A DNA stretch of 32,000 nucleotides from Candidatus Nanosynbacter lyticus (lineage in GTDB: Bacteria > Patescibacteriota > Saccharimonadia > Saccharimonadales > Saccharimonadaceae). The translations under genes were made by a program, and so were the position numbers. Below are positions 7,259 through 31,996 of the stretch, in pieces. The stretch covers positions 750,001-782,000 of the forward strand of contig NZ_CP124549.1 of the NCBI RefSeq assembly GCF_030253515.1. The letters run 5' to 3'. The notes beneath the pieces were generated by a model. The model was not told the DNA's origin. It did not search any database and worked only from the letters and a program-made list of their open reading frames with translations. Every line of letters begins with the position of its first letter. Position 1 is the first letter of the stretch.

Positions 7259-7679
7259 GCTGTGCTGCTAGGTCGCTATCAGGCCAAATATACCTGAAGT
7301 TTTGCGGCGGACGAAATGCTGGCAGAACCTGACGTAACTGTGATAAAGAAATTGGCTGGTCGTAGCGCACCGACGCCAGTATCTCTAACGCGCCACACTG
7401 TTTCCGCCCCGCATAATAGCGCGAAAACCACTGCACGGCTTGCTCATCCGTATCATACCCAGTGAGCCGCATCAACTCATCCAGTGGGCAGCGCATGACA
7501 CGTCCAACCCGAAATTCGCCGATAACCGCCCGGTCACCCCCCGACGAATAAACGACTACGGTTAGCTCATCATCTTTGCTGTGGCGCGGCAAGGATTTAC
7601 GAAATTCCCATCGCTTCTCACCACGAAAAATTTTCTCGGCATAACGGGTTTGAATCGACATCAAAATATAACGACTCAT
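7197..7679 (-). CDS. ASCH-domain (PUA-like fold) protein
   Basis: ILMSIQTRYAEKIFRGEKRWEFRK...VVVYSS...AVIGEFRVG is the pattern typical of ASCH domains. I chose the start at MSRYIL (7679) from the -10 geometry; the ORF track starts at 7706. Confidence 0.7.
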   Translation of the reverse strand: MSRYILMSIQTRYAEKIFRGEKRWEFRKSLPRHSKDDELTVVVYSSGGDRAVIGEFRVGRVMRCPLDELMRLTGYDTDEQAVQWFSRYYAGRKQCGALEILASVRYDQPISLSQLRQVLPAFRPPQNFRYIWPDSDLAAQLSEMSAICPDILSKLSKPRH

Positions 7680-7685
7680 ACCGAC

Positions 7686-7691
7686 AGTATA
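7686..7691 (-). promoter_or_regulatory. -10-like box TATACT, 6 nt upstream of ATG 7679
   Basis: The minus strand reads TTTACT-17 nt-TATACTgtcggtATG with no SD. Confidence 0.4.
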
Positions 7692-7719
7692 GGACAAGTT
7701 CAGCAATCAGTAAACTAAG

Positions 7720-7746
7720 TTAGCACTCTTGCACTGAGAGTGCTAA
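7720..7746 (+). promoter_or_regulatory. CIRCE operator (HrcA-binding inverted repeat)
   Basis: TTAGCACTC-ttgcactga-GAGTGCTAA is a perfect match to the CIRCE consensus TTAGCACTC-N9-GAGTGCTAA. It overlaps the clpB promoter. Confidence 0.9.
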
Positions 7747-7757
7747 TTTGCTATGAT
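7729..7757 (+). promoter_or_regulatory. sigma-70-type promoter of clpB
   Basis: TTGCAC (7729-7734), 17-nt spacer, TATGAT (7752-7757). The -35 lies in the CIRCE spacer. Confidence 0.65.
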
Positions 7758-7844
7758 AATCATATCAATTATCCCCGCTCTGTCTCTCGCCGCGGCGCAC
7801 ATAAATACGGACTTAGAAAAGCCCAAAAAATCAAAGGAGGACCT

Positions 7845-9980
<2,136 letters not shown>

Positions 9981-10058
9981 TATAATTCCTTCATTCTTAT
10001 AAATCACGGATACCTGCTTCCGTATGGTTTAGGCCATTCAAGGTTGTGCTCATAACAT

Positions 10059-10093
10059 GAAAAGTGCCCCAGCCATCAACTGGAACACTTTTC
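10059..10093. terminator. bidirectional terminator-like hairpin between convergent clpB and the FtsX-permease gene
   Basis: 8-bp outer stem GAAAAGTG / CACTTTTC plus 4-bp inner stem CCAG / CTGG. T-rich 3' sides on both strands. Confidence 0.6.
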
Positions 10094-10124
10094 GTTAGAT
10101 CGCTCTCGGGCTGAGACAGACACG

Positions 10125-12350
10125 CTACTCGGTTTGATTAGCCTCTGCCCGCGTCAGCTTATCAACCATCGGCAGAATCAGGTAAATACCGATGATGGCC
10201 GCCGCCAGACCGATACCAACGATGGCAAAGTACGTTGGTGTTAACACCGGCTTCAGCGTCGTCGAGAATGTGCTAGTAAACACCGCCCCCGTCCATACGC
10301 CAAGGCTACACGACAGAATCGAGGTGATCAGCAGCGGCGCCGCCGACTCAACCATCACCAACCGCTTCAGCTGGGCGAGACGCATACCGCCGAGCCGCAA
10401 GGTGTATAGCGAGCGGCGACGTTCCATCAGCCCGCCAATCGTCGAGACGATCAAGCTTGCCACCGCCACGAACAGCGTCACGCCGATACCGACATAGGCT
10501 AAGTCGGCAAACTCGCGAATCGTCGGATTGATGTGCGGCTTTTTAGAGTCAGTGCCGCTCACCGCATAGGTCAAATCGTACTGACTAGCTTTCGCCGTCA
10601 CCAAGGTGCGCAATTTCTCGATGTCATTGTCTGACTTCAATGTCACCAAATATTCTTTGGCGCCGTTCGTATCGACCTTATCGTTAACTAGCGACACGTT
10701 TTTGACTACTGGCGCATCAAAATTCAACAGCGCGAATTGGTCGGGCCGGGCATTATTCGGGCAAGCGTGCTCGGTATACTTCGCCAAATCCTGGCAGCGA
10801 ATTGCATCGCCATCCTCACGCGGATAGATCGTCGCCACCGACGTGATGTACGATTTTTGCTGCAGCTGCTCCGCCATATCGCCTGGCAGCGACCGGCCGA
10901 TGACAATTGCCGTGCCGCGCTTTAGCTGCGAAAAGCCGTTATCTTTGATAGCTTGAGCGTTTAAGCCTTCGATACCGCTGGTCGCCGTCAAATAAAAGCT
11001 GCCCGCAAACAGCGCCAATACCACGCCGCTGACGCTGCGGAAAATTGTCCGCGAATGCACCGCCGTACGCTTACCAGCGATCAGCATTGAAGCGTTACTA
11101 GCCCAGCGAGCTGCCAACAGCGACAGCTTATTGGTTAGCCAGCCGCCAGCCAGAATCAAGCCGAACATCACCAGCAGCAGCGCCGCCATCAATAGTACCG
11201 ACGGCAGAGCTGATTCTTTATTAGCCGCCAGCCAATCCCGCCCTGGCTTCGACGACAGCCATGCAAAGAACGCGATACCAAGTGCCGGCACCAGCGCCCG
11301 CCAAGCGCGCAATTTCTTCACCTTTTCAACCGAACGCGACACACCCAGCGGCGAAATCTGCGCCCGGCGCATCCGCCGCCAGTTGACAAACATCGTTAGT
11401 CCCAGCGTCAAACCAATAATCAGCGCGTATTGCATGCCGGTTAACGCCAAATCGCCAGGATTAAACCGCATGCCGTCCATCTTGAAATCCTGCAGAGGCG
11501 CTTGCAGCAGCCAAAACGCGCCCAGCCCGATAATCACGCCAACCACCGACGCCAGTAGCGATTCCAACATCAACACCCGTCCCACCTGCCGCTTAGTTGC
11601 GCCGATCAGCCGCAAAGCAGCATAGCGTTTCTCACGTTGCGCTGCGCCCAGCTGCGTCGCCACTGACACGAAAATGACAATCGGAAACAGCAAAATCGTC
11701 CCGCCGACACCAAATACAATGATCGCTACCGGATCAAATACAGCGTTCGACTTCAATCCATTGGTATCCGTCCGATAGACATCAGCAAAGTATGACGGCT
11801 GCCCCTGAGATTTGGTAAAAGCATCGCTCTCGGCCACTTCCTCGGCGCTCGCGCCACGTACCATCATCAGTGCATCCGGGCTGGCAACATATTCGCTAGG
11901 AATTACGCCAAGGTATTTGGTATTTTTACCAAAACGTGCCAAGATATTGTCCTCTGGATGCTGAGCAACCGCATCGGCCAACGCTTTTGATAAGTAGTAT
12001 TCACCAGGACGCGGCGTTTTTAGCTTGGCAAATTGCGGCGATTTAGCCGTGCCGTACATTGAATAAGACTGGATAGACTGACCGCGCCATTTCGACGCAT
12101 CACCACGCCAGGTACCGCCAATTTTCAGCGGTTCAATACCCTCAATCGGTTTTTGTTCAGCCGCACCGCGAGCCGCCTGATACGCCGCCGTATTAATTGC
12201 TAGCCCACTAGTGCGCCCCTTTATCCCGTTGATACCAGCCGTAAAGCAGCACACCAGCACGATCCCCAGCGCCACCGCCGCCGTGGTTAGACCCAGACGC
12301 GCGAACGACTGGCGGCCAGACTTTTGTAATAACATCCAACTAACGCTCAT
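10125..12350 (-). CDS. ABC transporter permease with two FtsX-type modules (MacB-like)
   Basis: 741 aa. The architecture repeats twice: TM helix, roughly 170-aa extracytoplasmic domain, three-TM bundle. Overlaps the upstream ATPase gene by 4 nt. Confidence 0.85.
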   Translation of the reverse strand: MSVSWMLLQKSGRQSFARLGLTTAAVALGIVLVCCFTAGINGIKGRTSGLAINTAAYQAARGAAEQKPIEGIEPLKIGGTWRGDASKWRGQSIQSYSMYGTAKSPQFAKLKTPRPGEYYLSKALADAVAQHPEDNILARFGKNTKYLGVIPSEYVASPDALMMVRGASAEEVAESDAFTKSQGQPSYFADVYRTDTNGLKSNAVFDPVAIIVFGVGGTILLFPIVIFVSVATQLGAAQREKRYAALRLIGATKRQVGRVLMLESLLASVVGVIIGLGAFWLLQAPLQDFKMDGMRFNPGDLALTGMQYALIIGLTLGLTMFVNWRRMRRAQISPLGVSRSVEKVKKLRAWRALVPALGIAFFAWLSSKPGRDWLAANKESALPSVLLMAALLLVMFGLILAGGWLTNKLSLLAARWASNASMLIAGKRTAVHSRTIFRSVSGVVLALFAGSFYLTATSGIEGLNAQAIKDNGFSQLKRGTAIVIGRSLPGDMAEQLQQKSYITSVATIYPREDGDAIRCQDLAKYTEHACPNNARPDQFALLNFDAPVVKNVSLVNDKVDTNGAKEYLVTLKSDNDIEKLRTLVTAKASQYDLTYAVSGTDSKKPHINPTIREFADLAYVGIGVTLFVAVASLIVSTIGGLMERRRSLYTLRLGGMRLAQLKRLVMVESAAPLLITSILSCSLGVWTGAVFTSTFSTTLKPVLTPTYFAIVGIGLAAAIIGIYLILPMVDKLTRAEANQTE

Positions 12351-17657: not shown

Positions 17658-20600
17658 TTAATCGAGCAAGCTCGCTCCGCCGCCAGCGTCATACGCCGCG
17701 CGTTTTTGACTCCACTCATTGCCATAGCGCTTGGCCTGTTCTAATACCATGTCAGTTGCCAATGCCTGTTGATCTGGCGGATAGCCATATTTTGCCAAAG
17801 TTTTCTTAACGTTAACTTTCAGTTTTGCCTGAACATTCCTGCGCTCGGCCCAGTCAATCGTGGCATCACGACGCACCTGCTCTAACAATACTTTTGCGAT
17901 ATCACGAAGTTGCGCGTCACCCAGCACCTCACGAGCACTACCATTTTCAACCAGCGCATCGTAAAATATAATCTCATCCTCGCTTAGACCATCAACCGTT
18001 CCGTTCTCGACAGTCTGGCGAATTTTCTGTCCAATGTTGATCAACTCTTCGATCACCTGCGCCGCCTCAATCGTCCCGTTTCTATAGCGCGTCACGGCTT
18101 GATTGAGCAAGTCAGAGAACTTCGTATCCTTGGCATAATTTCTCGAAAATCGTAGTTTAATTTCATCAGCGAGCAGCTTTTGCAGAGCTTCCACTGCCAA
18201 ATTCTTGCGCTCCATGTTACGAATTTCTGCCAGGAACTCATCGCTCAAAATTGACAGTTCCGGCTTTTCTAATCCCGCCGCCTCAAACACATCAACCACA
18301 CCAACTGGCGCAATTGCTTTATCAACAATTTGTTTCAGCGCACTGCGATACTCGGCATCAGTCACCACCACCGAGCTGGACACTTTCTCCAGCCGAGCTT
18401 TCACCGCCTGAAACAGCGCCACTTCCTCGCGAATTTTCAATGCCTCAGGTCTCGGCATAACCAGTGCAAAGGCTTTACTCAGTTCCAAAACGTGCTGCTT
18501 CAACCGCTTCGCACCGTCTTCCAACCCTAAAATATATTCCTCTGCATCCAAAATAATTTGCAGCTGTTGGTCGGTCGGTGCGGTAAAATATCGCTGATAA
18601 TCAAAGCTACCAAATAAATCGCGCACCACTTCATAGCGCATCTGCATCTGCGCCACCGCCTCAGTAATATCAAGCTGTGGTGCGCCCTGCCCACCGCTTT
18701 GCGTATAGTCAGAGATAGCATCGCGCAGCGCCCCTGCCACACCCAGATAGTCAACCACCAAACCACCAGTTTTACCCGGAAACACTCGGTTGACTCGTGC
18801 AATTGCCTGCATCAAATTATGGCCCTTCAACGGTTTATCCAGGTACATGGTGTGCATATTCGGCACATCAAATCCCGTCAGCCACATGTCGCACACAATC
18901 ACCAATTCAAGCGGATCATTTGGATCTTTGATACGCTTTTCGATCGCCTTTACCCGTTGTTTATTACGAATATGCGGCTGCAAATAGTCAGGGTCGCTGG
19001 CACTACCGGTAATAATCACCTTTATCACACCACGTGCGTCATCATTACTGTGCCAATCCGGCCGATACGCCACAATTTTTTCATACAAATCAGCCGCAAT
19101 ACCGCGACTCATCGTCACGATCATACCTTTACCGCTCAGCACACTTTGCCGAGCCTCAAAGTGCTCAATGATATCCAAGGCGATAGTATTCAGCCGCTCG
19201 CTATTACCGACGATAGCTTCTTTTTGTGCATACTCGGCCTTCAGTGCATCCTGACGGCTCAATTCTTCGCCCTCCAGCAAATCATCAACTTCCTTATCCA
19301 GCCACTGTCGCGTTGCCTCGTCCATATTCAAATCAACCAGCCGACTCTCGTAATAAATCGGCACCGTTGCACCATCTTTCACCGCCTGCTCGACATCATA
19401 AATATCGATATAGTCGCCAAACACCGCCGGCGTTGACTTATCATCCGTTTCAATCGGCGTACCCGTAAAGCCAATATAACTCGCACCCGGCAAAGCGTCG
19501 CGCATATACTTGGCATAACCATACACCAGCTGGGCGTCACTGGCTCGAACATGCGCCTTCAAACCGTATTGGCTACGATGCGCCTCATCTGCCATCACGA
19601 TGACATTGCGTCGATCAGTCAGGACTGGCAGACTGTCCTCCTCATCCTCAGGCGAGAATTTTTGGATTGTCGTAAAGATAATTCCGCCCGCTTCGCGCTG
19701 CAACAGTTTCCTAAGTTCACTGCGTGAATCAGCTTGTTTCGGATCTTCTCCTAATAGCTCGCGACAGGCGCTAAACGTACCGAATAATTGACCATCAAGA
19801 TCATTACGATCCGTCACCACCACGATGGTTGGGTTATGCAAATCGCGCGACTTCATCAGCTTGCCAGTATAAAACACCATACTCAAGCTCTTGCCCGACC
19901 CTTGCGTATGCCAAACCACGCCAGCCCGTTGGTCACCGCGTTCACTACTAGCTGCCAGCGTCCGATCAAGTGCCTTATTCACCACCCAATATTGATGATA
20001 AGCGGCAACTTTTTTGATTAATTTATCGCCATCACCTCGCTCAAATACGATAAAATTCTGCACTATATCCAGCAAGCGCTCAGGCGTACACGCACCGCGC
20101 AGCAACACCTCCAACATCGGCACATTGCCAACTTCTTTCTCGCCATCAATCGTCTTCCACGGCATCATTCGTTCCAGCGGGCTGGTGATCGTGCCCATTT
20201 CTGCCTCTAGTCCATCACTGGTGACACACAGCTCATTAAACCGAAATAGGTCACTAATCTCACGCTTGTACGTCTGGATTTGCTGATACGCCGCTATCAA
20301 ATCCGCCTTCGTATCGGCCGCATTTTTTAGTTCAATCACCACCAGTGGCAAGCCATTCACAAACAGCACAATATCCGGCCGGCGATTATAGTCGCCCTGC
20401 AGAACCGTCAGCTGATTGACCGCCGCAAAATCATTGTTTTTTGGCGAGGTAAAATCAACCACCCGCACGATATCATGTTTCACTTCGCCACTTGGCATGC
20501 GATATTGCACCGGCACGCCTGCTACCAGCAATTGATGAAAATCGTGATTATTCTCGATCAAGCTTGGTTTACTAATCTGCGTCAAACGCCGCATCGCTTC

Positions 20601-20792
20601 ATTCAAGGCCGGTTCTGGAATGTGCGGATTGAGCCGCGCCAAAGCACTTCGCAGCCGCTCCAGCAACACCACCTGCCGCAGCTCACGCTCAGCCACAGCA
20701 CCATCAGGACCAATGTCCGGTCCATGCAGAATCTGCCAGCCGAGATCAGCCAGGATATCAAGCGCGTATTGTTCGATTTGGGATTCAGTCAT
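17658..20792 (-). CDS. hsdR: type I restriction enzyme R subunit
   Basis: N-terminal PD-(D/E)xK (PDIVLFVNGLPLVVIELKN), helicase motif I TQGSGKS, motif II DEAHRSQ, motif VI QAIARVNR, 1044 aa. Confidence 0.95.
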   Translation of the reverse strand: MTESQIEQYALDILADLGWQILHGPDIGPDGAVAERELRQVVLLERLRSALARLNPHIPEPALNEAMRRLTQISKPSLIENNHDFHQLLVAGVPVQYRMPSGEVKHDIVRVVDFTSPKNNDFAAVNQLTVLQGDYNRRPDIVLFVNGLPLVVIELKNAADTKADLIAAYQQIQTYKREISDLFRFNELCVTSDGLEAEMGTITSPLERMMPWKTIDGEKEVGNVPMLEVLLRGACTPERLLDIVQNFIVFERGDGDKLIKKVAAYHQYWVVNKALDRTLAASSERGDQRAGVVWHTQGSGKSLSMVFYTGKLMKSRDLHNPTIVVVTDRNDLDGQLFGTFSACRELLGEDPKQADSRSELRKLLQREAGGIIFTTIQKFSPEDEEDSLPVLTDRRNVIVMADEAHRSQYGLKAHVRASDAQLVYGYAKYMRDALPGASYIGFTGTPIETDDKSTPAVFGDYIDIYDVEQAVKDGATVPIYYESRLVDLNMDEATRQWLDKEVDDLLEGEELSRQDALKAEYAQKEAIVGNSERLNTIALDIIEHFEARQSVLSGKGMIVTMSRGIAADLYEKIVAYRPDWHSNDDARGVIKVIITGSASDPDYLQPHIRNKQRVKAIEKRIKDPNDPLELVIVCDMWLTGFDVPNMHTMYLDKPLKGHNLMQAIARVNRVFPGKTGGLVVDYLGVAGALRDAISDYTQSGGQGAPQLDITEAVAQMQMRYEVVRDLFGSFDYQRYFTAPTDQQLQIILDAEEYILGLEDGAKRLKQHVLELSKAFALVMPRPEALKIREEVALFQAVKARLEKVSSSVVVTDAEYRSALKQIVDKAIAPVGVVDVFEAAGLEKPELSILSDEFLAEIRNMERKNLAVEALQKLLADEIKLRFSRNYAKDTKFSDLLNQAVTRYRNGTIEAAQVIEELINIGQKIRQTVENGTVDGLSEDEIIFYDALVENGSAREVLGDAQLRDIAKVLLEQVRRDATIDWAERRNVQAKLKVNVKKTLAKYGYPPDQQALATDMVLEQAKRYGNEWSQKRAAYDAGGGASLLD

Positions 20793-20796
20793 ATTT

Positions 20797-22398
20797 CTAT
20801 CCTTTACTTTTCTGGATTTTTATCAACCTTACCTTGCCAATGCCATAAAGCTCGAGACTTCTCTTAACGTTCTTAAGGGCGACCTTACTAAAGAAAGGTA
20901 TGTTTAGCTTGTTAGATGATTCACTAATAATACTAAATATTACCTCATATTTCCGTGCGTCTGGCTTCTGCCCTACGGGGACAAATTGCTCCGAAGGCGG
21001 TAGTATATCATTTACTGATTTCCTGAAATTTTCATCACTAAGCATGAGCTGCGCAGACACAAGCCCTTGATTGAATAAATGACTTAAAACAGACGATCCG
21101 CCGTACTTTTTTACATGGTATAAACGAGAACTATTGTAATCAAATAGATCACAAAACTCTATCTTACTATGTCCACCTCCATACGGTATATTTTTTGCAT
21201 CCATAAGCGTCAACCCATTAATACGTGCTACTCTTTCGTTGTACGAATTTTCAGAAGAATCCTCTATTGCAAAGGGCGGCAAAATTTCCTCTTCCTCCAC
21301 TATTGATAAATATTCTTGATTAATAAGTTTAGCAAAGTTTGTTTCAACACAATACCACTTTGAATTATTAAGTATATAAATCCCGTTATGCTCATCCCTT
21401 ACCTCAGCATAGACGCAAGACCAAGCTGACCATCTCCTAAACTCCTGGTTATTACTATCGTTGAGTGCGGCAATTTTCTGCTTTTTTAGAGTATCAAGGT
21501 CAACTTCTTTGCCACGACTATGCAAACTATCAAGTAGATTATCTAGATCTAAATCATCGCCAAAAGAATTCACATCTCCAATAAATAAAAACCCTTTGAC
21601 ATCACTCCAATCAATAATTTCAGGGATCGCTAGCCATACAGTGCCATGCTCTTCAGAGTTTAGCTTACTAATTAAAATATCATTTAAAGAGCTAACTTTT
21701 ATAGGGTCTTTTACTTCGGCTACTTGATCAATCCAATCGAAATTATCTTTATAGACACTGAGCTTTGAAGCAAGAAAATAAGCACGAAGTTTATCGTTAA
21801 GGTTAGATATATTAACTCTAGCTGATATATGAAGAGAATCTTTACCCGTTATTATTGACCCGTAGTCTTGATTTAAGCATTTTCCAGTAACTGCGCGTAC
21901 TAAATCCTGCTCTATATCTATACCAAAATCTGCTGCCTCACTAGCAACAATAACCTGCTCTCGGGCCTGTTTTGGAAATAACCCCACACTACTCTTGTCA
22001 ATACTGCGAATAGAGTCAGCTTTTATTAAGTTTAATGTGGTCATTAGACCAAACCTCTCTTCATAGCAACCCGGCTTTAACAACTGCCAACCTCCCAATC
22101 CAAATGCTACCGCAAACTTACGATATTGTGCTGTTTGAATTTTTACATTTACAATTAAAACAGCACTAACGTATGCCGTATAAAGATCAAAATCCAGATT
22201 ATCAGCAATCTCCCTGCCAAAAAAGTCATAAAGCCAACTGGGTGGCTTAGGCCTAGAATTACTATAGTAAAGCGTAGCATCGTCATCGATAGATATATTT
22301 TTAATTGACGACGGATCGTCAAAGATGTCTGCTATATCTTCAATTCCGTCCTTTATAAGATATACTGATAGTTTGTTCGTTTTTAGTTCTGCTGTCAT
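20797..22398 (-). CDS. uncharacterised 533-aa protein, resembles the TIGR04141/DUF6119 'sporadically distributed' family (from memory, unverified)
   Basis: Long AT-rich ORF coupled to hsdS by an ATGA overlap and ending 4 nt before the hsdR ATG. Features seen: N-terminal KLSVYLIK, DSL.I, F.WID, and C-terminal IEFCDL-x10-YHVKKYGGSSVLSHLFNQG. Confidence 0.85.
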   Translation of the reverse strand: MTAELKTNKLSVYLIKDGIEDIADIFDDPSSIKNISIDDDATLYYSNSRPKPPSWLYDFFGREIADNLDFDLYTAYVSAVLIVNVKIQTAQYRKFAVAFGLGGWQLLKPGCYEERFGLMTTLNLIKADSIRSIDKSSVGLFPKQAREQVIVASEAADFGIDIEQDLVRAVTGKCLNQDYGSIITGKDSLHISARVNISNLNDKLRAYFLASKLSVYKDNFDWIDQVAEVKDPIKVSSLNDILISKLNSEEHGTVWLAIPEIIDWSDVKGFLFIGDVNSFGDDLDLDNLLDSLHSRGKEVDLDTLKKQKIAALNDSNNQEFRRWSAWSCVYAEVRDEHNGIYILNNSKWYCVETNFAKLINQEYLSIVEEEEILPPFAIEDSSENSYNERVARINGLTLMDAKNIPYGGGHSKIEFCDLFDYNSSRLYHVKKYGGSSVLSHLFNQGLVSAQLMLSDENFRKSVNDILPPSEQFVPVGQKPDARKYEVIFSIISESSNKLNIPFFSKVALKNVKRSLELYGIGKVRLIKIQKSKG

Positions 22399-23561
22399 AC
22401 TTCAATCTCTCCAGAAATTAGTTTTAGTAAAAGTGCGTCACGAATATTCACGAGAGAATTAGTCTCAAATAAATTAGTTTTTATTTGGTCAATTACTGAC
22501 GTAAATTCTGATGTCATCTCTTCAATATTTGGCGGCACTATAACCTCAGCCTGTTTTAGATGCTTTCGTTGAATATGACCCATAGTTGTAGCTTTTGATT
22601 TAGCAATTAATATAAACTGATCTAGGTGATATTTTGTCCAATAGTAATATAGCCATTCAGGATATTTATCTGAGGTGACTTTAAACAGGTGTTGATTAAG
22701 CGCACCATCTCCACCACTCCAAAACCTAACCATCAACGTACCAGACCACGAGAACAACAAATCACCATCGCGTATGATATACTCTTCCGGAATATTAGCA
22801 CTGGCGATATCAGTAGAGTCCGTTATTCCACTGGACATCTCTCGAATTTTTATTACAGGAAGAGTTGGTTGTCCATTGATTTTTGGATATTTTTGCATAG
22901 CTAAACCATTCAAGAAATTAGCTATTTCATCAAGTGGTTTTTTATCCCAGCTCCTCGCCTCAGGATTATCAACAAAATAATGGCGAAATAGGGTTTGGCC
23001 GAGCTGCTCGAGGGTTTCGTTCATGCGGCGGTTGAGCTCGATTTTTTCATCAAGGCTGCTGAGGATATCGGCAATTTTCTTTTGTTGGTAGAGTGGCGGC
23101 AGATTAAGTTCCATATTAGGCACCGCTTTGACCGATAAGTGCATTACCGTACTTCCATTACTATGTGCTAGCATATACTCTCGAGCAATTGGAGACTTTA
23201 GATAATAAAAAAGGTACCTAGGATCGACGACTTCTGTATCTGTCGCTATTATTTTTGACAGATCCAACGAAAAACAAGCACTTCTGCCTATATTCGGCAT
23301 AATTATAGGACTACCAATGATTTCACGATTCTGGGTAAGATCTGTGTTTGCTATCAGGATGTCGCCAGGCTCAACATATTGCGATGGCTTTATTTGTCCT
23401 GCGTAATATTTTATGCCATCAGCATTATATCCCCCGCCCCTAGCAACAGACTTTAGGTTAACAAAAGCAATTCCATTTTCTGAATTAGAATAATCGGCAC
23501 TTCTATATGAAATACCTTTGATAATCTCTGCAACCTCACCAAGTAGGATCATTTTTGTCAT
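22395..23561 (-). CDS. hsdS: type I R-M specificity subunit (two TRDs)
   Basis: 388 aa with two TRD-like halves, separated by a central conserved helix (PPLYQQKKIADILSSLDEKIELNRRMNETLEQLGQTLF) and ending in a second helix (LVNIRDALLLKLISGEI). Confidence 0.92.
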   Translation of the reverse strand: MTKMILLGEVAEIIKGISYRSADYSNSENGIAFVNLKSVARGGGYNADGIKYYAGQIKPSQYVEPGDILIANTDLTQNREIIGSPIIMPNIGRSACFSLDLSKIIATDTEVVDPRYLFYYLKSPIAREYMLAHSNGSTVMHLSVKAVPNMELNLPPLYQQKKIADILSSLDEKIELNRRMNETLEQLGQTLFRHYFVDNPEARSWDKKPLDEIANFLNGLAMQKYPKINGQPTLPVIKIREMSSGITDSTDIASANIPEEYIIRDGDLLFSWSGTLMVRFWSGGDGALNQHLFKVTSDKYPEWLYYYWTKYHLDQFILIAKSKATTMGHIQRKHLKQAEVIVPPNIEEMTSEFTSVIDQIKTNLFETNSLVNIRDALLLKLISGEIEV

Positions 23562-25615
23562 TTTTTTATTGCCCTTTCGGTAGCCTCGTCCGCGTTCGCA
23601 TAATCAGACGCGAGTCTGTCGCGTTCAGTTTTTAATTTATCTTCAAGAAAGTTATGCCTACACTCAACGTCTGCAAATATATCACTCCACTTTCTGACGT
23701 AGATTTTACAATTATCCTTTGAAAATATTAACCCTTTTTCTTTTTCCCCATGCCCTTTATTGGTGTCGATTTCACCCTCTATATAGCCTGATGTATCATA
23801 TCTATTACCAATAAGCATAAAATCCCAGTAAGTATTATCACCATTAAATCGAGGATCTGAGAATATTGTTCGCTGATATCTCTTAATTTGAGACACTTCG
23901 TCCTCTCCAAGCAAAACAGAAGGTCTCTTAAGCTCTATTACTAAATTATTGATTCGGTTATTCTCAAGACTTTGTCTACACAAGAATAAGTCCATCTCCT
24001 TATTTTTATCTGGTGATTCCATACTCACGCTTTGTTTTTTGCCACCATGCAATATATATAGATATTCTGACAATGCTTTTTCAAACTTAACTTCAGTACT
24101 GGAAACAAGGTTATATTCCTCTCCAAAAACCCAAAAATTATGATCCAAAACTCTTTGTACATGATCAACCTCGCGAGAATTGAAGTCGTTACTAAAAACT
24201 ATCGCTTTTAGAGCATCAATTGTAACATAACGATCTTGGATCATCTTAATGGTTTGAATTATGGCATCTAATTTATTCACCTTTAATAGATCCGCTAATT
24301 GCTTCTGCTCTTGAGCGTCAAGCCGCACAACAGCATCAATTATAGTGTACACTTGATCACGCTGGTTCGAGTCCAGAAGTGCGTTCAGAAGGTGTACAAA
24401 AGTCTTTTTCTGCTCTATATTTGAAGCACTTTCACCAAATATTTTTGGCTGGATCTGATAAATACCTTTTATAAGAGCTTTTAGTTCGTTATTGCGGGGA
24501 ATTTCCCAGCTATTATTGACCTCAGGGATGACATTATCTTTTTCATACCGATCAACGAGATCATCTGCCATCTTTTGGAGATGAGGACTACGCATACGAC
24601 GCAGGTATTCATTCATCTCGGAAATGACATATTTAAATTCTTCGTCTTGCTTACTATTAAACTTTTGCTCTTTATTTTGTAGAGGGCTTTGGTCATGACT
24701 GATTTTATCCTCGTATGAGAACATGTCAAAATAATCACTTTTTATATATACACTGTGATAAAATTTATCGCCTTTATTGTTCAGTAGGGTTGTAGATTTA
24801 TAGTTCTCCTTGCCAGTTGAATCTATTAGATAATATCGCGAGAATTCTTTATTTAGTTTTTTCTTCCACTGAATATACTTAACATCAAAGCGAGTTGATG
24901 TTGCATCGTGAATAATCTTCTCATCCCTTTCATCAGCTATCATTTCTCTATAGTCAATAGGGCTACCATTAATAGATATAGAGAACATCTTATCTTTGAA
25001 CAATCCTAAAAACCAACAGAATTCCTGTAACAGGTATTGTTTTACGGTAGTCTCAATGTTACCCGAAGACAGCTCGCGTATCCCCTCAAATGTAACCTTT
25101 GTTGACGTCCCCTGCTCATATGGTATTTCAGAAACAGGCGAATGAGCACCCGTATAACTATGCAAATCATCAGACTTGATTTCTATATCATATTTATAAA
25201 GCTTACTGCTTTTTTCATATACCGTTGTCCATCGTGCAATATTTGCAAACGTAAAAAAAGTAAGTCGACCCACTCCATTTTTGCCATGCACCAAAGAATG
25301 ATGCCTGGAGTCTGTCTTATTTAGCGCCTTTTCCGATTCATGAAAAGGCTTAAACTTCACAGACAATAAACCCTGAGGTATTCCACTTCCATTATCTGCT
25401 ATAGTAATACTTCTTAACGATCCTAACTCATTTTCTTCGTAGCTAATGTCTATACTAGTTGCACCTGCGTCAAATCCATTCCAAATATATTCGGCGATTG
25501 ATTCCTGTGGCGAATAAGCACTTAATATAGATTTAACTCCGTCTCCACCAAGCTGAATCTCGTCCGAAACAATTGCTTCTGCTAGACTATCTTTTAATAC
25601 TGTACTGTTAGTCAT
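23558..25615 (-). CDS. GHKL-type ATPase fused to a C-terminal PD-(D/E)xK (Shedu/DUF4263-like) nuclease domain
   Basis: N-box [16 protein letters not shown]1 box DNGSGI, G2-like [12 protein letters not shown]-terminus: FWVFGEEY, then D542 (MDLFLCR), then E561-x-K563 (VIELKRP), then QIKRYQ. 8-nt overlap with hsdM and ATGA overlap with hsdS. Confidence 0.85.
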
Positions 25616-27101
25616 TTTTATATGATTCTTTTATTCTTTTTAGGTTTATAGAGATAGATTTTTCTAGCTCGCGGCTCCTCGCAAACTGCCCTTCAAGCTC
25701 GGCTGTCAACCTAGCAAATTTCTCGGCAAACGGCTCATCGTCTTCCTCGGCCTCTTCAACACCAACGTAACGACCGGGTGTCAACACATATTCATGCTGC
25801 TTGATTTCTTCTAGATTAGCGACTTTACAGAAACCCGGCTGGTCAGTGTAATCCGCACTGGCGGTTTTATAATCATGATATGTCTTCGCCACCCGAGCAA
25901 TGTCTTCTGCGGTTAGTTCACGGTTACGACGGGTGACCATCTTGCCCAAATTACGCCCATCGATGAACAGCACTTTGCCGTGGCGGTTCGCCCGGTTGCG
26001 CGACACAAACCACAGACAGCATGGTATAGCGACATTAAAAAACAACTGACTCGGCAATGTGACGATAGTGTCAACCATATTATTGAGTATTAATTGCTTG
26101 CGAATATCACCTTCGCCACCGGTTTGGCTACTCATGCTCCCATTTGCCAACACAAAGCCTGCCGTACCGCGCGGGCTCAAATGGTAAATCATGTGTTGAA
26201 TCCAGGCAAAGTTAGCATTACCCTTTGGCGGTAGACCATATTTCCAGCGCGGGTCAGCCTGCAAGTGTTCTTGACCCCAATCGCTAATGTTAAACGGCGG
26301 ATTGGCCAAGATATAATCAGCTTTCAGGTCGAGAAGCTGGTCATCCACCAGGGTGTCGCCGCGTTTGATATTCGCGTCAATTCCCCGAATTGCCATATTC
26401 ATTTTAGCGAGTCGCCAAGTCGTTTCGTTCAGTTCCTGGCCATACACCGCGATATCGCTAACGCGGCCTGCGTGCTCCTCGACAAACTTCTCACTCCAGA
26501 CGAACATACCGCCGCTACCGCAACACGGGTCATACACACGCCCGCTGTATGGCTCAAGCATTTCTACCAGCAGCTTAACGATGGAGCGCGGCGTGTAGAA
26601 TTCACCGCCATGCTTACCCTCACTATCAGCAAACATACCCATAAAGTATTCGTAGACTTGACCAAGCAAATCTTTGGAACTGGCAGTATCAAATTTGATA
26701 TTTGTAAATAAATCGATGAGTTCACCCAAGCGACGCTTATCTAGAGCTTCACGAGCATAATTTTTCGGCAAAACACCCTTCAAACTTGGATTGTCGCGTT
26801 CAATTGCCTCCATGGCGCTGTCAACTAGTACGCCAATTTCTGGCTGCTTGGCACTCGCCACCAGGTGCTCCCAACGAGCCTCCTTGGGAATCCAAAAAAC
26901 ATTCTCCGCCAAATACCAATCCCGGTCCTCAGGATCATAATTCTCATCAATCGCTGCCTGATATCGCACCGAAAACGCATCTGAAACATATTTTAGAAAA
27001 ATCAGCCCCAACACGACATATTTATAATCCGACGAGCTGATGTTGCCCCGTAATTTATCCGCCGTAGCCCATAGCTGCCTTTCAAGATCCCTCATATTCA
27101 T
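25608..27101 (-). CDS. hsdM: type I R-M N6-adenine DNA methyltransferase subunit
   Basis: HsdM_N-type start ([10 protein letters not shown]), motif [11 protein letters not shown], motif IV NPPF. Confidence 0.95.
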
Positions 27102-27108
27102 ACGTGTA

Positions 27109-27117
27109 ATTATATCA
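27109..27117 (-). promoter_or_regulatory. extended -10 promoter TGaTATAAT, 7 nt upstream of the hsdM ATG
   Basis: The minus strand reads cTGATATAATtacacgtATG. A perfect TGnTATAAT with no SD, giving leaderless geometry. Confidence 0.55.
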
Positions 27118-27131
27118 GATTCGGGGGTCGT

Positions 27132-27785
27132 TTACTGTGAATGTATCAGGCCCTTGTAGCTAGTTTTCGTGACAATAATATGATCATTAAGCGTAATGCC
27201 AAGTAGTTTCCCCGCTTCCGCCAGCCTGTTCGTGACATCTTTATCAGCCTGACTCGCCTCCAAGCTCCCGCTCGGATGATTATGCGCCACGATGATGCTG
27301 GCCGCACGGTCGGCAATGGCGTCGGCGAAAACCTCGCGCGGGTGTACCAGGCTGGCGGTCAGCGTACCAATGGTCACTACCCGTTTAGTAATCAAACGAT
27401 TCGCGCCATCCAGCGTCAAGCAGACAAAATATTCCTGCTTTTTGTCGCGAATGTCAGACAGCAACTCAACCGCTTTTTCTGGGCTGTCAATAATTGGCTG
27501 GTCACTATCCAGCAAATACCGCCGCGCCAGCTCCAAACTCGCCAGAATAACTGGGATTTTCGCTTCACCCAATCCAACCACGCTACGTAGATCATCATAC
27601 GAAATATCGCCGCCTTTTTGACGTACGATTTTCAGCACTTCGCGCGCAATTTTACCGACATCGGCCCGAGCATTACCGCTGCCGATAATCGCCATCAACA
27701 GCTCCAAATCACTCAGTCGCGCCGTACCGTAACGCGCCAACTTTTCACGCGGCCGGTCCAGCGGATGACGGTCAGAGATCCTCAT
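27132..27785 (-). CDS. radC: RadC-like JAB/MPN-domain protein with HhH N-terminal region
   Basis: RPREKLARYG, HhH-like GLGEAKIPVILASLELARR, JAMM motif HNHPSG...S..D. GC-rich, unlike its neighbours. Confidence 0.9.
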   Translation of the reverse strand: MRISDRHPLDRPREKLARYGTARLSDLELLMAIIGSGNARADVGKIAREVLKIVRQKGGDISYDDLRSVVGLGEAKIPVILASLELARRYLLDSDQPIIDSPEKAVELLSDIRDKKQEYFVCLTLDGANRLITKRVVTIGTLTASLVHPREVFADAIADRAASIIVAHNHPSGSLEASQADKDVTNRLAEAGKLLGITLNDHIIVTKTSYKGLIHSQ

Positions 27786-27791
27786 ATAGAC

Positions 27792-27797
27792 AGTATA
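27792..27797 (-). promoter_or_regulatory. -10-like box TATACT, 6 nt upstream of the radC ATG
   Basis: The minus strand reads gcTATACTgtctatATG with no SD. Confidence 0.4.
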
Positions 27798-27841
27798 GCA
27801 AGCACCCTAACTAAACTAAAGTTGCCAAGCCGCACGCATAC

Positions 27842-29947
27842 CTACTGTTCAATCGGCTTTGTTAATTCAACATTGATAGAGATTTTATCAACATTAAACA
27901 TCTCCGCTAGTTCGTGCATGAGCCGTATTTTTTGATTCGTATTTGTTGCTACGTCAACCACAAGCCCTGTGTCGTGAATCTTTACGGAATTAAAAAATCT
28001 TTTAGAATCATTACTGATCCAATTTTTCGTCTTTTCGCTGTTCATAATCTGATCAGTAAAATCAGGGTTCTCGTCGTACAGATACTCGCAATAGACGCCA
28101 AGAATTTGCGACCAGCTCGTTACCGGATACGAATCGTCACCGATATAGAATATTTTTACCACTGCTCCTGTAAAATCAATATCGTCGAAGATATTAACTT
28201 TTGTGTCGAGTACCGGCGGTTCAAATGTACTTGTTGGTAACGGCCAAATACTAATTATTCTATCAATCCACCACTGCTGACGTTCCAGTATAGTCTTCTC
28301 ATTCCAGGTACTATATTTAGCAACAGTCCTATTAATCTTAAGCGGACTATCGGCAAACCCATTCGGCATATTACATTTCTCCTGGAAACTCTTATTTGAG
28401 TATTCGGAGTTATAACCGGTTAGCGTTAAATTTGCTAGTCCATGCAAATAGATGCCATGAATCTCATCGGCACGTTCGCCGAGCTCACTCCGCCAAGCTT
28501 TGGTTATAGTCTGCGGCATAATGTGCTCAATCGTTAAATGTAGCTCTTTGTTGTAAATCTGCCTTAGCAACGACACGTCCTTAGACTCATCGTCAACCGC
28601 AGTTAACAGATACATGACATTGGAAGAGCGCTGATTGTAGGTGAAGTTCGCCTTTATTGCCATCTCTATTTCATTATTTCGGGGCAATCGGATCCGCCCG
28701 TTTTTCGAAAGTACGGTGTATTTCAGTACTTCGAGATATGCAGCATTGTCCTGTTCAACAATTGACAATATGCTTCTGTGCAATCCGGCAAAATAGCTGT
28801 CTAAGCCTGTTGCCGATAAGTTAACGACTATACGTCGTGAAAAGTAGACACGTAGCACATCAAATACCTCGGTAATTTCATCATCTGACAAATATCCAGC
28901 TTGCCAATATTTCATGACTGATACGGCATACGGGAAGAACGCTTCAATCCTCAGATAACGCATTGTAAATGCCACCGAACTAAGTTTTGTAAATTCATTA
29001 TTTTCGTCTATGCCAAACTTTAGAAAGCGATAGTATTTTAATATTCTCAAAATCTCGCCGTAAAATTCGTCAAGTGATTCGTATGACTGGTCATTAGAAA
29101 TACTTTTAGCGAATACTCTTTTGAATTCCGGGTATACTTTATCGGTATTCACGACCGATTGGTTCTTGGCAATCAAATAGACGCGGAAGAAGTCGGTAAT
29201 ATCATCACGCTGCGGATCGGTTAGGTATGTTTCAATATACTGCCAATAGTTAGTCAAAACATAATCTTGTTTTTCGGAGGTGCGCAACATTAACGAGAAG
29301 TTTCGGATTTTGTCGCCATCTGTCAACGGTTTGCCGGTTGAATTGATACTCTCAAAGACTTTTTGCGGATTATCATCGTCTTTGTCTAGAATAATCGTGA
29401 CAATCTCGAAGTTATCAAGCGTATCAATATATTGTTCTAAATGATCACGATTTCTAAAGTAGTCGTAGAATTGGAGGTAGGATTTATACAAATTACTTTT
29501 CTTCTCATATTCTGTCAGTTCTGCCTGGCTAAATATTTTCTCAAATATTTTATTGTCGGTGGTCACTGCCCGAAGCTTAATCCGATTTTCCTCCGAATCA
29601 TATTGTTTTGCATATCTGTTATATAAATATTCGTCCTTGATTTGCTCGGCTACCAGTCTAAGCTTTTCAGGTGACTCTAACGCTAAATGGTAAATTGCAG
29701 TGATCATCAGCAAAACTGTCGTTGCACGCTGCTGACCGTCGATAATGATACTTCGGTCGCCGTCGTTGATATACACGATACTGCCGAAATAATGCTTTTT
29801 ATCTCCACGCTTCACCTCTTCAAGGTCGTCTAAAAACATTTGGACATTATCGGCTGTCCAAGAATAAGGGCGTTGAAAATTAGGTATCTCAAAGAATTTG
29901 TTTGGCGTATATAAGAATAATTTAATGTTAGTTTGCAGCGCTTTCAT
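27842..29947 (-). CDS. DUF262 + DUF1524 protein (GmrSD-like type IV restriction / modification-dependent nuclease family)
   Basis: N-terminal FEIPNFQRPYSW and IIDGQQRATT are DUF262 (ParB-like NTPase) motifs. TIEHIMPQ...LHGLANLTLTGYNSEYSNKSF is the DUF1524 His-Me finger. An unassigned C-terminal region of about 170 aa follows. AT-rich. Confidence 0.9.
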   Translation of the reverse strand: MKALQTNIKLFLYTPNKFFEIPNFQRPYSWTADNVQMFLDDLEEVKRGDKKHYFGSIVYINDGDRSIIIDGQQRATTVLLMITAIYHLALESPEKLRLVAEQIKDEYLYNRYAKQYDSEENRIKLRAVTTDNKIFEKIFSQAELTEYEKKSNLYKSYLQFYDYFRNRDHLEQYIDTLDNFEIVTIILDKDDDNPQKVFESINSTGKPLTDGDKIRNFSLMLRTSEKQDYVLTNYWQYIETYLTDPQRDDITDFFRVYLIAKNQSVVNTDKVYPEFKRVFAKSISNDQSYESLDEFYGEILRILKYYRFLKFGIDENNEFTKLSSVAFTMRYLRIEAFFPYAVSVMKYWQAGYLSDDEITEVFDVLRVYFSRRIVVNLSATGLDSYFAGLHRSILSIVEQDNAAYLEVLKYTVLSKNGRIRLPRNNEIEMAIKANFTYNQRSSNVMYLLTAVDDESKDVSLLRQIYNKELHLTIEHIMPQTITKAWRSELGERADEIHGIYLHGLANLTLTGYNSEYSNKSFQEKCNMPNGFADSPLKINRTVAKYSTWNEKTILERQQWWIDRIISIWPLPTSTFEPPVLDTKVNIFDDIDFTGAVVKIFYIGDDSYPVTSWSQILGVYCEYLYDENPDFTDQIMNSEKTKNWISNDSKRFFNSVKIHDTGLVVDVATNTNQKIRLMHELAEMFNVDKISINVELTKPIEQ

Positions 29948-29954
29948 ATATCTA

Positions 29955-29960
29955 ATTATA
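29955..29960 (-). promoter_or_regulatory. -10 box TATAAT, 7 nt upstream of the DUF262 ATG
   Basis: The minus strand reads agTATAATtagatatATG with no SD. Confidence 0.45.
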
Positions 29961-29995
29961 CTACTTCATTGCTGCTTCTTTAGGCGATGTGTTTA

Positions 29996-31996
29996 CTAAA
30001 CTTTCACTGACTGTCGGCCGCGCACCACGCACATCGCCACTACAAACATGCCAACCAGCCGCGATACTAATGAGCTGTCGTCTGCACTTGATTGAGTTGT
30101 TGTCGTGAATTCTTCCTCCGGATTGAGCTGGCTGTCGTCCGGCCATAGGCCAGGAGATGGGCGGCTTTTTACGACCAAAACATTGTCACTCACGGCACTC
30201 ATTTCGCTATTATAACCGTAACTGTCAACCGCCAAATCATTCTGTTCGTCCACTTCAGATTCTACCGCCTCAGACACTTCAGCAGCAGCAAGTTCTGCTT
30301 GCGCTTCAGACAAATCGACGACTGACTCTATGCCACTAGTATCCATAGTTATAGTTTCAACTTCAGCATCCAGACACAACAAATCGCTTTTTTCCGATGC
30401 TTTCATAACTATATTGTCACGCTCCTCGCGAGGCATGATGCGCTCCTCTAAAATTTCCACTACTGGCTCATCCAGCTCAACATCAGGTATTAGCTCAACA
30501 GCTGGCGAGATAGGAATAACTATCTGCTCTACTGGCTCATAATCATTGGTGACTTCAGGAACTGATACCGCCTTAGAATTGTCCAATTGCCCCGCGGAAT
30601 CCATATCAACACTAATCTCGTCGTCCACAGAGGGTTTCAAATCATCGACTTCTTCACGCACCGTAGTTGCCTCCATTGATAGCGCAATCGTCACCATTTC
30701 AGCCGAAGATACGTTCAACTCTACTGATGACGGCGCTTGTTGTTCGACAAAAAACACCATATCCTCCTCAGCCCAAGCTTCGTTGTCCTCGCCATATTCA
30801 ACGATATCTTGAGCTGATAATGACACAATCACCGGCTGATCAGGCTGCTCTTTCGCTGGAATTGATGCGGCCGCATTAACCATCTTTTCAGTAGATGTCT
30901 CGTTTGTTTCGTATTCCGCCGACACATTAACGGCGTCCTCTTGCTCCTGATATGGCGACACATTAGATGCGGTTGGAATTACATGCTTGGGCTGTTCGAC
31001 ATCAACGCCATCGGTCGATTCGACAAAATTATTATAATCCGGCGCCGCATCTATACTAATCTCGCTAGGTTGAGCGTCTGTTGATGCTTTCGTACCAGAA
31101 TTATCAATTGGCCCCGTGGTCGCAGATTCATCCGCCCTTACTGCGTCAAATCGCGCTGCCAGGTGTTGCTGCTCGGAAACTGGCGTAGCACTTTCATCAT
31201 TTTCTGCTGCTCGGCTCGGCTCAAAATTGGCTGATTTTGACCCTGTTATAACAAAAACTTTTTCTTTTTGGCGTTCAATTGATGGTGTTTTTACACTTGA
31301 TGGCGCAGTAGTTTCATCGCCATCATATGTATTTTCCACAACACTATCGACGGGTTTACCTTCGCCAGACAAGAAGTTAGCAGTTTCATTTTTTGGCAAA
31401 GTATTATTCTCGTTAGCGGTTTGAGTATCCTCGCTTGCCCCCGGCGATGACGACACAGTTTTCGTTTGCGTTTGCGTCGGTATGTCTGAAGATTCGAATG
31501 CTGGCTGCTCACTTTCTTTATCTACTGCGTCAGAGATAATAGCAGGAGTTTGCTGTTTTATTTCTATTGACGGACGATTTTCCTCTGTTGGTTCGGTAAA
31601 ATACTCCTCGCCAGATGTATTGACGGACACTTCGCTAACAATTTCTGGCTGGGCTTCTCTAATCTCATCAACATCATCAGCGGCATCTTCCATAACAATT
31701 GCTGATTCCAAAAACAATTGTTCCGCCTCCTTAATATCCGCAGGTTCGTCTGGAGATTCTGTTGTTTCACTAGTCGGGATTTCATCACCTTGATTCGGCG
31801 GCGCAACCTGCTCAATTAGTTTATCCGTCTTATCGTCACTTGTTTCAGTGATATCTGCATTTGTTGAATCCGCCCCGCTATCAGGATTAGCGTAACCCGC
31901 CACGACAATACCGTCATCGTCGTCACTCAGCAAATCTCTTAAATATGATTCGCGTTCTGGCGCTGGCTGCAAATTTTCATTAGCAAAATTGCGCAT
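29996..31996 (-). CDS. very acidic, low-complexity protein with a C-terminal hydrophobic segment (possibly 5'-incomplete at the window edge)
   Basis: 666-aa uninterrupted ORF rich in E, D, S, T, V and A, with few K or R. It ends in LVSRLVGMFVVAMCVV-RGRQSVKV. No signal peptide at the visible N-terminus. The first ATG is 4 nt from the window end. Confidence 0.75.
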   Translation of the reverse strand: MRNFANENLQPAPERESYLRDLLSDDDDGIVVAGYANPDSGADSTNADITETSDDKTDKLIEQVAPPNQGDEIPTSETTESPDEPADIKEAEQLFLESAIVMEDAADDVDEIREAQPEIVSEVSVNTSGEEYFTEPTEENRPSIEIKQQTPAIISDAVDKESEQPAFESSDIPTQTQTKTVSSSPGASEDTQTANENNTLPKNETANFLSGEGKPVDSVVENTYDGDETTAPSSVKTPSIERQKEKVFVITGSKSANFEPSRAAENDESATPVSEQQHLAARFDAVRADESATTGPIDNSGTKASTDAQPSEISIDAAPDYNNFVESTDGVDVEQPKHVIPTASNVSPYQEQEDAVNVSAEYETNETSTEKMVNAAASIPAKEQPDQPVIVSLSAQDIVEYGEDNEAWAEEDMVFFVEQQAPSSVELNVSSAEMVTIALSMEATTVREEVDDLKPSVDDEISVDMDSAGQLDNSKAVSVPEVTNDYEPVEQIVIPISPAVELIPDVELDEPVVEILEERIMPREERDNIVMKASEKSDLLCLDAEVETITMDTSGIESVVDLSEAQAELAAAEVSEAVESEVDEQNDLAVDSYGYNSEMSAVSDNVLVVKSRPSPGLWPDDSQLNPEEEFTTTTQSSADDSSLVSRLVGMFVVAMCVVRGRQSVKV

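Follow-up and report, generated by a model that had tools for sequence, protein, structure and literature searches.

We analysed a 32,000-nucleotide stretch of a Candidatus Saccharibacteria genome (Candidatus Nanosynbacter lyticus, contig NZ_CP124549.1, positions 750,001 to 782,000; hereafter the window), which carries a Type I restriction-modification (R-M) operon with two further genes embedded in it. The operon spans 17658-27101 and reads, on the minus strand, hsdM, a gene for a 685-aa protein, hsdS, a gene for a 533-aa protein and hsdR. Comparison with sibling operons and with the wider families of the two embedded genes indicates that this operon is probably a scaffold with two cargo hotspots, in which autonomous cargo shares expression with the Hsd subunits without depending on them. 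The hsdM/hsdS junction (slot A) and the hsdS/hsdR junction (slot B) would be the sites at which unrelated defence cargo is swapped between strains. In the window, slot A holds a predicted GHKL ATPase-nuclease fusion and slot B a protein of the DUF6119/TIGR04141 family. Defence genes embedded in Type I R-M operons and GHKL-type Shedu genes inside R-M loci are known already, and no new kind of composite system is revealed; new are the double-slot arrangement, the clean population-level record of it in Saccharibacteria, and the proposal of DUF6119/TIGR04141 as a candidate defence family.

Exchange of cargo at two junctions

The window operon was compared with sibling operons overall ~87-93% identical to it: L001-L003, which come from Candidatus Saccharibacteria assemblies, and L081-L084, which lie on metagenome contigs with 91-93% identity to the window. 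In L081, collinearity with the window holds over 22395-30665 and returns where hsdR starts (20792); the DUF6119 gene has therefore been replaced exactly, by a GajA/GajB-like (Gabija-like) cassette together with a 253-aa gene. Slot B of L084 carries a HamB-like (Hachiman-like) helicase (E 9e-52) with a 249-aa partner, and that of L083 carries an RVT_1 protein with an HTH-SocA/Panacea pair (reverse-transcriptase/toxin-antitoxin cargo); in both contigs collinearity is broken in the middle of hsdS, at ~22945. L001 and L002 retain DUF6119 and hsdR and vary at the other junction, where collinearity breaks at the 3' end of hsdM (~25663) and resumes at ~22445, ~50 nt before the DUF6119 start. Slot A of L001 contains a RhuM/PDC-S05 gene followed by a 665-aa HATPase_c protein (6904-8901, plus strand) that was not detected by the profile of the window GHKL family; since this is a different GHKL protein, distinct GHKL ATPases use the same slot. 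In L003 the slot is filled by HATPase_c_2 and DUF4325 genes and two small genes. The slot boundaries fall at gene junctions. The siblings swap each slot separately, and the operon thus has two independently exchangeable slots with swappable cargo and no fixed pair. The original prediction had asked whether insert-free versions of the locus exist in relatives; in L002, slot A holds a 166-aa ORF only.

Synonymous divergence (dS) between the window and L082, a 91%-identical operon copy, was 0.20 for the GHKL gene (23558-25615 versus 10001-12058), as against 0.61 for hsdM and 0.70 for the adjacent radC gene. Divergence this uneven fits a mosaic history, and the threefold lower value suggests that sharing of the cargo is more recent than that of its flanks. 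The exchange probably proceeds by homologous recombination for which the conserved hsd sequences provide the anchor points; breakpoints at the junctions of operons this similar offer a clean natural case of hsd genes as recombination anchors. For defence systems, a recombination hotspot has been proposed at the hsdS-hsdR junction (PMC12255303).

The distribution of the two cargo families was examined in 80 loci fetched per family seed (160 in total) and annotated with iterative profiles built from the window proteins. Both cargo genes occurred together in a single locus, L082, a co-occurrence (1/160) on which an obligate two-gene system was rejected. In those loci whose flanks both extended to at least 4 kb, an hsd gene lay within three genes in 16 of 45 DUF6119 loci and 8 of 28 GHKL loci (29-36%), counts obtained with an hsd annotation that was seeded from the window and under-counts divergent R-M genes; hsd genes stood on both sides in 8 DUF6119 and 6 GHKL loci. 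Linkage to hsd is strongly enriched, yet found in a minority of each family. The original prediction had set enrichment beside hsd or other defence genes as a test beforehand, and the outcome agreed with it: besides the hsd-linked loci, neighbours included Type II/III methyltransferases, SIR2, Schlafen, SNF2-PLD, recombinases and a conjugative coupling protein. Where the embedded gene sits differed from locus to locus: between hsdS and hsdR, between hsdM and hsdS, after hsdR, or convergent. The hsd-linked members formed no clade in either tree (nearest-relative test, p = 0.18 and 0.11).

A distant metagenome locus (L162, 4034-10672) carries a Type III-like pair (N6_N4 methyltransferase and ResIII helicase) whose end is overlapped by a DUF6119 gene; SIR2_2 comes after the latter. 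Because of this Type III-like context, the association of DUF6119 with R-M genes reaches past Type I.

The R-M genes and the two cargo proteins

Pfam, NCBIfam and PADLOC searches confirmed a full Type I R-M set. The HsdM translation has intact DPCCGSGG and NPPF motifs. HsdS has two target-recognition domains (Methylase_S in two stretches). HsdR is complete in architecture, having a PD-(D/E)xK nuclease at the N terminus, then an SF2 translocase and a C-terminal domain (Pfam, NCBIfam), and its D...ELK nuclease motif, GSGKS Walker A and DEAH box are all intact. The operon appears from its sequence to be functional. Megablast of the operon against Escherichia coli genomes and plasmids gave no match. 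All five genes are under purifying selection relative to L082, with ratios of nonsynonymous to synonymous divergence (dN/dS) of 0.03-0.14. The two inserts have dN/dS of 0.12-0.14 and intact conserved motifs, and the reading of them as decaying insertions was rejected on these grounds.

The close packing described in the original prediction was evident on reading the sequence, with five same-strand ORFs and the two extra genes translationally coupled to the hsd genes. hsdM and the 685-aa gene overlap by 8 nt (ATGACTAA); ATGA overlaps join the 685-aa gene to hsdS and hsdS to the 533-aa gene; and a 4-nt gap separates the 533-aa gene from hsdR, with AAAGGA just 5' of the hsdR ATG. Such coupling would supply shared expression of the five proteins. 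No dependence of the inserts on HsdM, HsdS or HsdR, be it physical or regulatory, follows from it.

The domain assignments of the original prediction were recovered by profile search, with E-values of 1e-16 for HATPase_c_3 in the 685-aa protein and 2e-132 and 2e-136 for DUF6119 and TIGR04141 in the 533-aa protein. The 685-aa family was studied in an alignment of 24 homologues at 42-72% identity. From the N terminus, the protein comprises a GHKL ATPase followed by an S5-like middle domain and then, after a helical linker, a PD-(D/E)xK nuclease at the C terminus. Residues E42/N46, D74xGxG78 and G111-G116 of the ATP-binding site are invariant in the family, as are D542, E561xK563 and Q576xxxY580 of the C-terminal domain, with invariant Glu residues upstream. 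The AlphaFold model (pLDDT 80) resembled, in Foldseek, the ATPase-transducer modules of MutL LN40, MLH1, MORC2/3/4, TRAP1/Hsp90 and Topo II (E ~1e-10), with alignments spanning 310-470 columns, and the middle domain is accordingly modelled as an S5-type transducer domain. HSDR_N_2 matched the C-terminal domain in 24 of 24 members, with a best E-value of 3e-5 and all matches below the Pfam cutoff. Iyer et al. defined paraMORC3 as GHKL plus S5 plus a C-terminal restriction endonuclease (RE)-fold domain that is RecB-like with an E-D-ExK signature (PMC2292703). By its motifs and domain order, the 685-aa protein is classified as paraMORC3-type, a fusion of a GHKL ATPase with a PD-(D/E)xK nuclease.

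Proteins fused to HATPase_c_3 were placed in Shedu 'Type 1D' by Gu et al., who also reported that, of 5,499 Shedu genes, 602 lie within R-M loci (bioRxiv 10.1101/2023.08.10.552793). The closest described counterpart is VcSduA, a single-gene, non-abortive anti-phage system which requires both its ATPase Glu and its nuclease Lys and which acts alone in the heterologous host E. coli (Adams et al., PMC12137116). VcSduA, Shedu type 1D, paraMORC3 and the 685-aa protein share the same order of GHKL motifs I-IV, a MutL/MORC/Hsp90-like middle and a PD-(D/E)xK domain with E-D-ExK; the catalytic Glu-Lys spacing is similar, E42...K563 here and E27...K557 in the published description of VcSduA. Both genes lie inside or beside R-M loci and near a GmrSD-type enzyme, VcSduA adjoining the GmrSD-like pair GrwAB in Vibrio cholerae. 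The 685-aa gene differs in being translationally coupled on both sides within a Type I operon, and in its Saccharibacteria host. By analogy with VcSduA, its product most likely works autonomously, as a DNA nuclease under ATP control, and restricts phage directly.

The 533-aa protein matches its family over the full length, aa 10-528 (442.8 bits in Pfam, where the cutoff is 27, and 455.8 bits for TIGR04141, where it is 35). Searching with a profile of the C-terminal domain retrieved 2,255 clusters at 50% identity (E <= 1e-10) among 1.84 billion representatives; the family is genuine but rare. Among the 150 matches listed, no alternative architecture of this domain was seen, only canonical ~530-aa proteins and fragments. 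The protein matched no PADLOC v2.0.0 model, PDC families included, and the searchable literature holds incidental mentions only of DUF6119, TIGR04141 and PF19614 as regards function. A relative is encoded by phage (phrog_18579). The C-terminal domain contains the invariant residues E383, D400, E414, D417, H428-x-K430, S439-H440 and Q444. In the structure model (pLDDT 84, pTM 0.80) this domain has the element order alpha-beta-beta-beta-alpha-beta; both this order and the residues D400/E414/D417/H428xK430 are compatible with a PD-(D/E)xK core. Foldseek with the model gave no significant match among solved structures in the PDB, and RdgC was absent among the top 50 PDB matches listed; the best partial matches, both weak and both to PD-(D/E)xK proteins, were CdiA-CT (4g6u, prob 0.72) and Hachiman HamA (8vxy, prob 0.28). 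In BFVD, a phage 'Exonuclease' matched the model (E 1e-4, prob 1.00, 287 columns, with TM only 0.22/0.37), followed by weaker matches to phage RdgC-type proteins. A second invariant acidic loop, FGIDIEQD (aa 158-165; 21904-21927, minus strand), is separate from the cluster of C-terminal motifs and falls in the stretch that was modelled with the lowest confidence.

DUF6119 would be an autonomous single-gene effector, with a large and possibly RdgC-like DNA-binding N-terminal part and a C-terminal domain of conserved acids and lysine that is perhaps a nuclease. We hold it evenly balanced whether DUF6119/TIGR04141 is an unrecognised single-gene anti-phage or anti-plasmid family, carried as cargo within or next to R-M operons of Type I and Type III, in which an RdgC-like module for DNA sensing would be joined to a new domain of nuclease-like character. 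In a bolder version, it would monitor DNA ends or structures made by, or escaping, the neighbouring restriction enzyme.

Probable autonomy of the cargo and other explanations

Accessory genes embedded in hsd loci are known, as the original prediction stated, and the rlo genes of Campylobacter are further defence genes embedded in Type I R-M operons. The closest known modules are TgvAB, in the Type I R-M cluster of V. cholerae VPI-2 (PMC11411939), and DarTG2, in the RRDM island of enteropathogenic E. coli (EPEC; PMC12255303). These are autonomous defence modules which, like the inserts in the window, lie on the same strand between hsd genes, both published sites being hsdS-hsdR. Two junctions filled at once, and other cargo families including DUF6119, set the window operon apart. 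PrrC in EcoprrI and RloC likewise exemplify an accessory gene inside a Type I hsd operon, but they are anticodon nucleases combining ABC-ATPase and HEPN domains that neither insert has, and PrrC occurs almost only inside Type I R-M systems whereas both insert families are found mostly elsewhere. Embedding in R-M operons is an established route to new immune systems, and Payne et al. have used guilt by embedding to define the HEC/PDC families (bioRxiv 10.1101/2024.01.29.577857). The two inserts show the same pattern, as same-strand genes between hsd genes with other defence cargo at the same site in relatives; unlike the HEC/PDC candidates, DUF6119 is not represented among the PADLOC models.

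The original prediction had placed both inserts in one composite system wired to HsdM, HsdS and HsdR, in which they would be latent second-line effectors held by the R-M complex and freed by a phage anti-restriction protein, in the manner of PrrC and RloC. Tight translational coupling within the operon speaks for such a system, as does the hsd linkage of ~30% of each family, far above random expectation; there is precedent in PrrC, which is almost confined to Type I R-M (bioRxiv 10.1101/2024.01.29.577857), and in TgvAB, which is 10-100-fold less protective outside its Type I cluster (PMC11411939). We nevertheless consider it improbable. The pair recurs only in the L082 copy, each slot is replaced separately by Gabija-like, Hachiman-like or reverse-transcriptase/toxin-antitoxin cargo of system types known to act alone, and in both families the majority of members lack a neighbouring hsd gene, those with one being scattered in the trees. 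Neither protein has a HEPN/anticodon-nuclease or ABC ATPase domain in Pfam, NCBIfam or PADLOC, and in E. coli the architecture of VcSduA functions by itself (PMC12137116). A PrrC-like dependent effector was rejected, as neither its domains nor its distribution fit, and a wired pair is not supported in view of the rare co-occurrence, the independent slot swapping and the absence of an hsd-linked clade. Still less probable, in our estimate, is that the inserts modulate the R-M enzyme, the GHKL protein serving as an accessory subunit for looping or remodelling DNA, a role first suggested for MORC/paraMORC proteins in R-M operons. Iyer et al. did suggest that paraMORCs cooperate with R-M helicases and nucleases, and the 685-aa gene overlaps both hsdM and hsdS; the same authors, however, noted that the nuclease-bearing paraMORC3 subset is often solitary, without conserved neighbours (PMC2292703). 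There is no hsd gene within three genes in 20 of the 28 well-flanked GHKL loci, and VcSduA acts as a single gene.

Another explanation concerns DUF6119 alone, which could be no immune effector and instead a mobile-element or DNA-metabolism protein (recombination, repair, anti-restriction) that hitch-hikes in variable regions. The fold matches to a phage 'exonuclease' and RdgC-type recombination-associated proteins, the phage-encoded relative, the serine recombinases adjoining DUF6119 in several loci, the member lying between dnaX/recR and transporter genes and the lack of a PADLOC model are all in its favour. We regard it as unlikely, because the slot is shared with Gabija-like, Hachiman-like and reverse-transcriptase/toxin-antitoxin cargo in siblings, in distant phyla the gene shows translational coupling to R-M genes of Type I and Type III, and its purifying selection is accompanied by a sporadic distribution typical of defence genes.

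Several observations weigh against the picture of two autonomous defence cargoes on an R-M scaffold, the under-counting of divergent R-M genes mentioned above among them. Pfam SduA_C (DUF4263) matched one member of the 685-aa family at E 0.2 only, below threshold; PADLOC SduA models gave weak matches (E 0.002-0.004) in 10-13 of 24 members; and a profile of the 685-aa protein's C-terminal domain found no match among solved Shedu structures. As membership in DUF4263 is not established, the protein is filed as paraMORC3 and likened to Shedu type 1D, not counted as a proven member. For the C-terminal domain of DUF6119, hhalign against the paraMORC3 nuclease domain and PDB profile searches were negative; Pfam RdgC gave no signal in DUF6119, and hhalign against E. 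coli RdgC was negative. The profile-level tests being all negative, 'nuclease-like' and 'RdgC-like' are leads for DUF6119, not findings. A nuclease-like motif had been claimed for each insert; it stood for the 685-aa protein (D542, E561xK563) and is unproven for the 533-aa protein. The DUF6119 member between dnaX/recR and the transporter genes stands alone among housekeeping genes. The reduced protection by TgvAB outside its own cluster leaves room for R-M synergy.

Two autonomous cargoes on a Type I R-M scaffold nonetheless remain the probable explanation, and DUF6119/TIGR04141 is nominated as a single-gene defence candidate that is cheap to test. Saccharibacteria are reduced-genome episymbionts, and with genomes so reduced a 12-kb defence island is a sizeable investment.

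Base composition, promoters and flanking genes

The features of the operon, its cargo and its surroundings are collected in Table 1.

Table 1. Features in and around the Type I R-M operon (positions in the window).
Feature	Position	Strand	Evidence and remarks
XRE-family HTH gene, 198 aa	17060-17656	+	Pfam HTH_3 2e-17; convergent with hsdR, stop codons 1 nt apart
hsdR, restriction/translocase subunit, 1044 aa	17658-20792	-	Pfam HSDR_N 6e-49, SWI2_SNF2 3e-80, T1RH-like_C 2e-114; TIGR00348 hsdR 4e-180
Terminator-like hairpin	17664-17677	-	overlaps last hsdR codons; consensus match only
533-aa ORF, slot B cargo	20797-22398	-	Pfam DUF6119 2e-132, TIGR04141 2e-136
Conserved C-terminal domain of DUF6119, aa 380-533	20800-21261	-	invariant columns
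hsdS, specificity subunit, 388 aa	22395-23561	-	Pfam Methylase_S 1e-28, two stretches; PADLOC Specificity_I 1.5e-107
685-aa ORF, slot A cargo	23558-25615	-	HATPase_c_3 1.3e-16
Predicted PD-(D/E)xK nuclease core, ~aa 495-600	23816-24133	-	invariant columns; HSDR_N_2 sub-threshold, aa 530-584
Best sigma-70-like match, TTGACA-16-TAAAAT, 11/12	24702-24729	-	inside 685-aa gene, coding strand; two-hexamer scan
GHKL (Bergerat-fold) ATP-binding domain, aa 34-147	25175-25516	-	Pfam HATPase_c_3; invariant N-box, G1, G2
hsdM, Type I methyltransferase subunit, 497 aa	25608-27101	-	Pfam N6_Mtase 3e-113, HsdM_N 3e-26; PADLOC MTase_I 8e-206
Extended -10-like TGATATAAT	27109-27117	-	read from sequence; missed by two-hexamer scan
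RadC-like JAB protein, 217 aa	27132-27785	-	Pfam RadC 4.5e-40; NCBIfam RadC 8e-58
GmrSD-family Type IV restriction enzyme, 701 aa	27842-29947	-	Pfam GmrSD_N 1.7e-35, GmrSD_C 6.9e-22; PADLOC Orf5 8e-106, HEC-06 1e-56

Whole-gene GC contents were 36.3% and 37.0% for the inserts, 38.6% for hsdS, 47.9% for hsdM and 49.9% for hsdR. The 23-33% quoted for the inserts in the original prediction is too low, and since hsdS is low in GC as well, the AT-rich block takes in the operon's entire middle, three genes in all. The extended -10-like TGATATAAT had been taken for the only promoter-like element; the best sigma-70-like match of the region, at 11 of 12 positions, lies inside the 685-aa gene. The region contains 28 promoter-like matches against 30 +/- 5 expected, a chance level at which the sigma-70-like match in the 685-aa gene is no evidence of function, and the argument from a single promoter was rejected for the same reason. 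TGATATAAT ends 7 nt before the hsdM ATG with no Shine-Dalgarno between; translation of hsdM may therefore be leaderless or proceed via read-through from radC. As radC ends only 30 nt upstream of hsdM on the same strand, the transcription unit may begin further upstream than hsdM.

The radC-hsdM adjacency is repeated in sibling loci and in distant phyla, and short RadC/JAB genes adjoin GHKL-nuclease genes also in loci without hsd genes (L055, L061, L136, L125, L130, L143, L144 and L146 were listed for the radC observation). The RadC-like gene may be a mobile-element marker or a functional partner. The operon, the RadC-like gene and the GmrSD-family gene upstream make up a small defence island, and with the GmrSD-family gene the island joins modification-dependent and modification-blocked restriction. 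Downstream of hsdR, the segment 16910-17657 with the HTH gene is missing from L001, L083 and L084 and differs in L082, as judged by collinearity gaps, which makes it a third variable spot. An ORF at 29996-31996 (minus strand) encodes a 666-aa product that is extremely acidic and of low complexity, has a hydrophobic C terminus and matches nothing in Pfam; a surface or anchoring function is conceivable.

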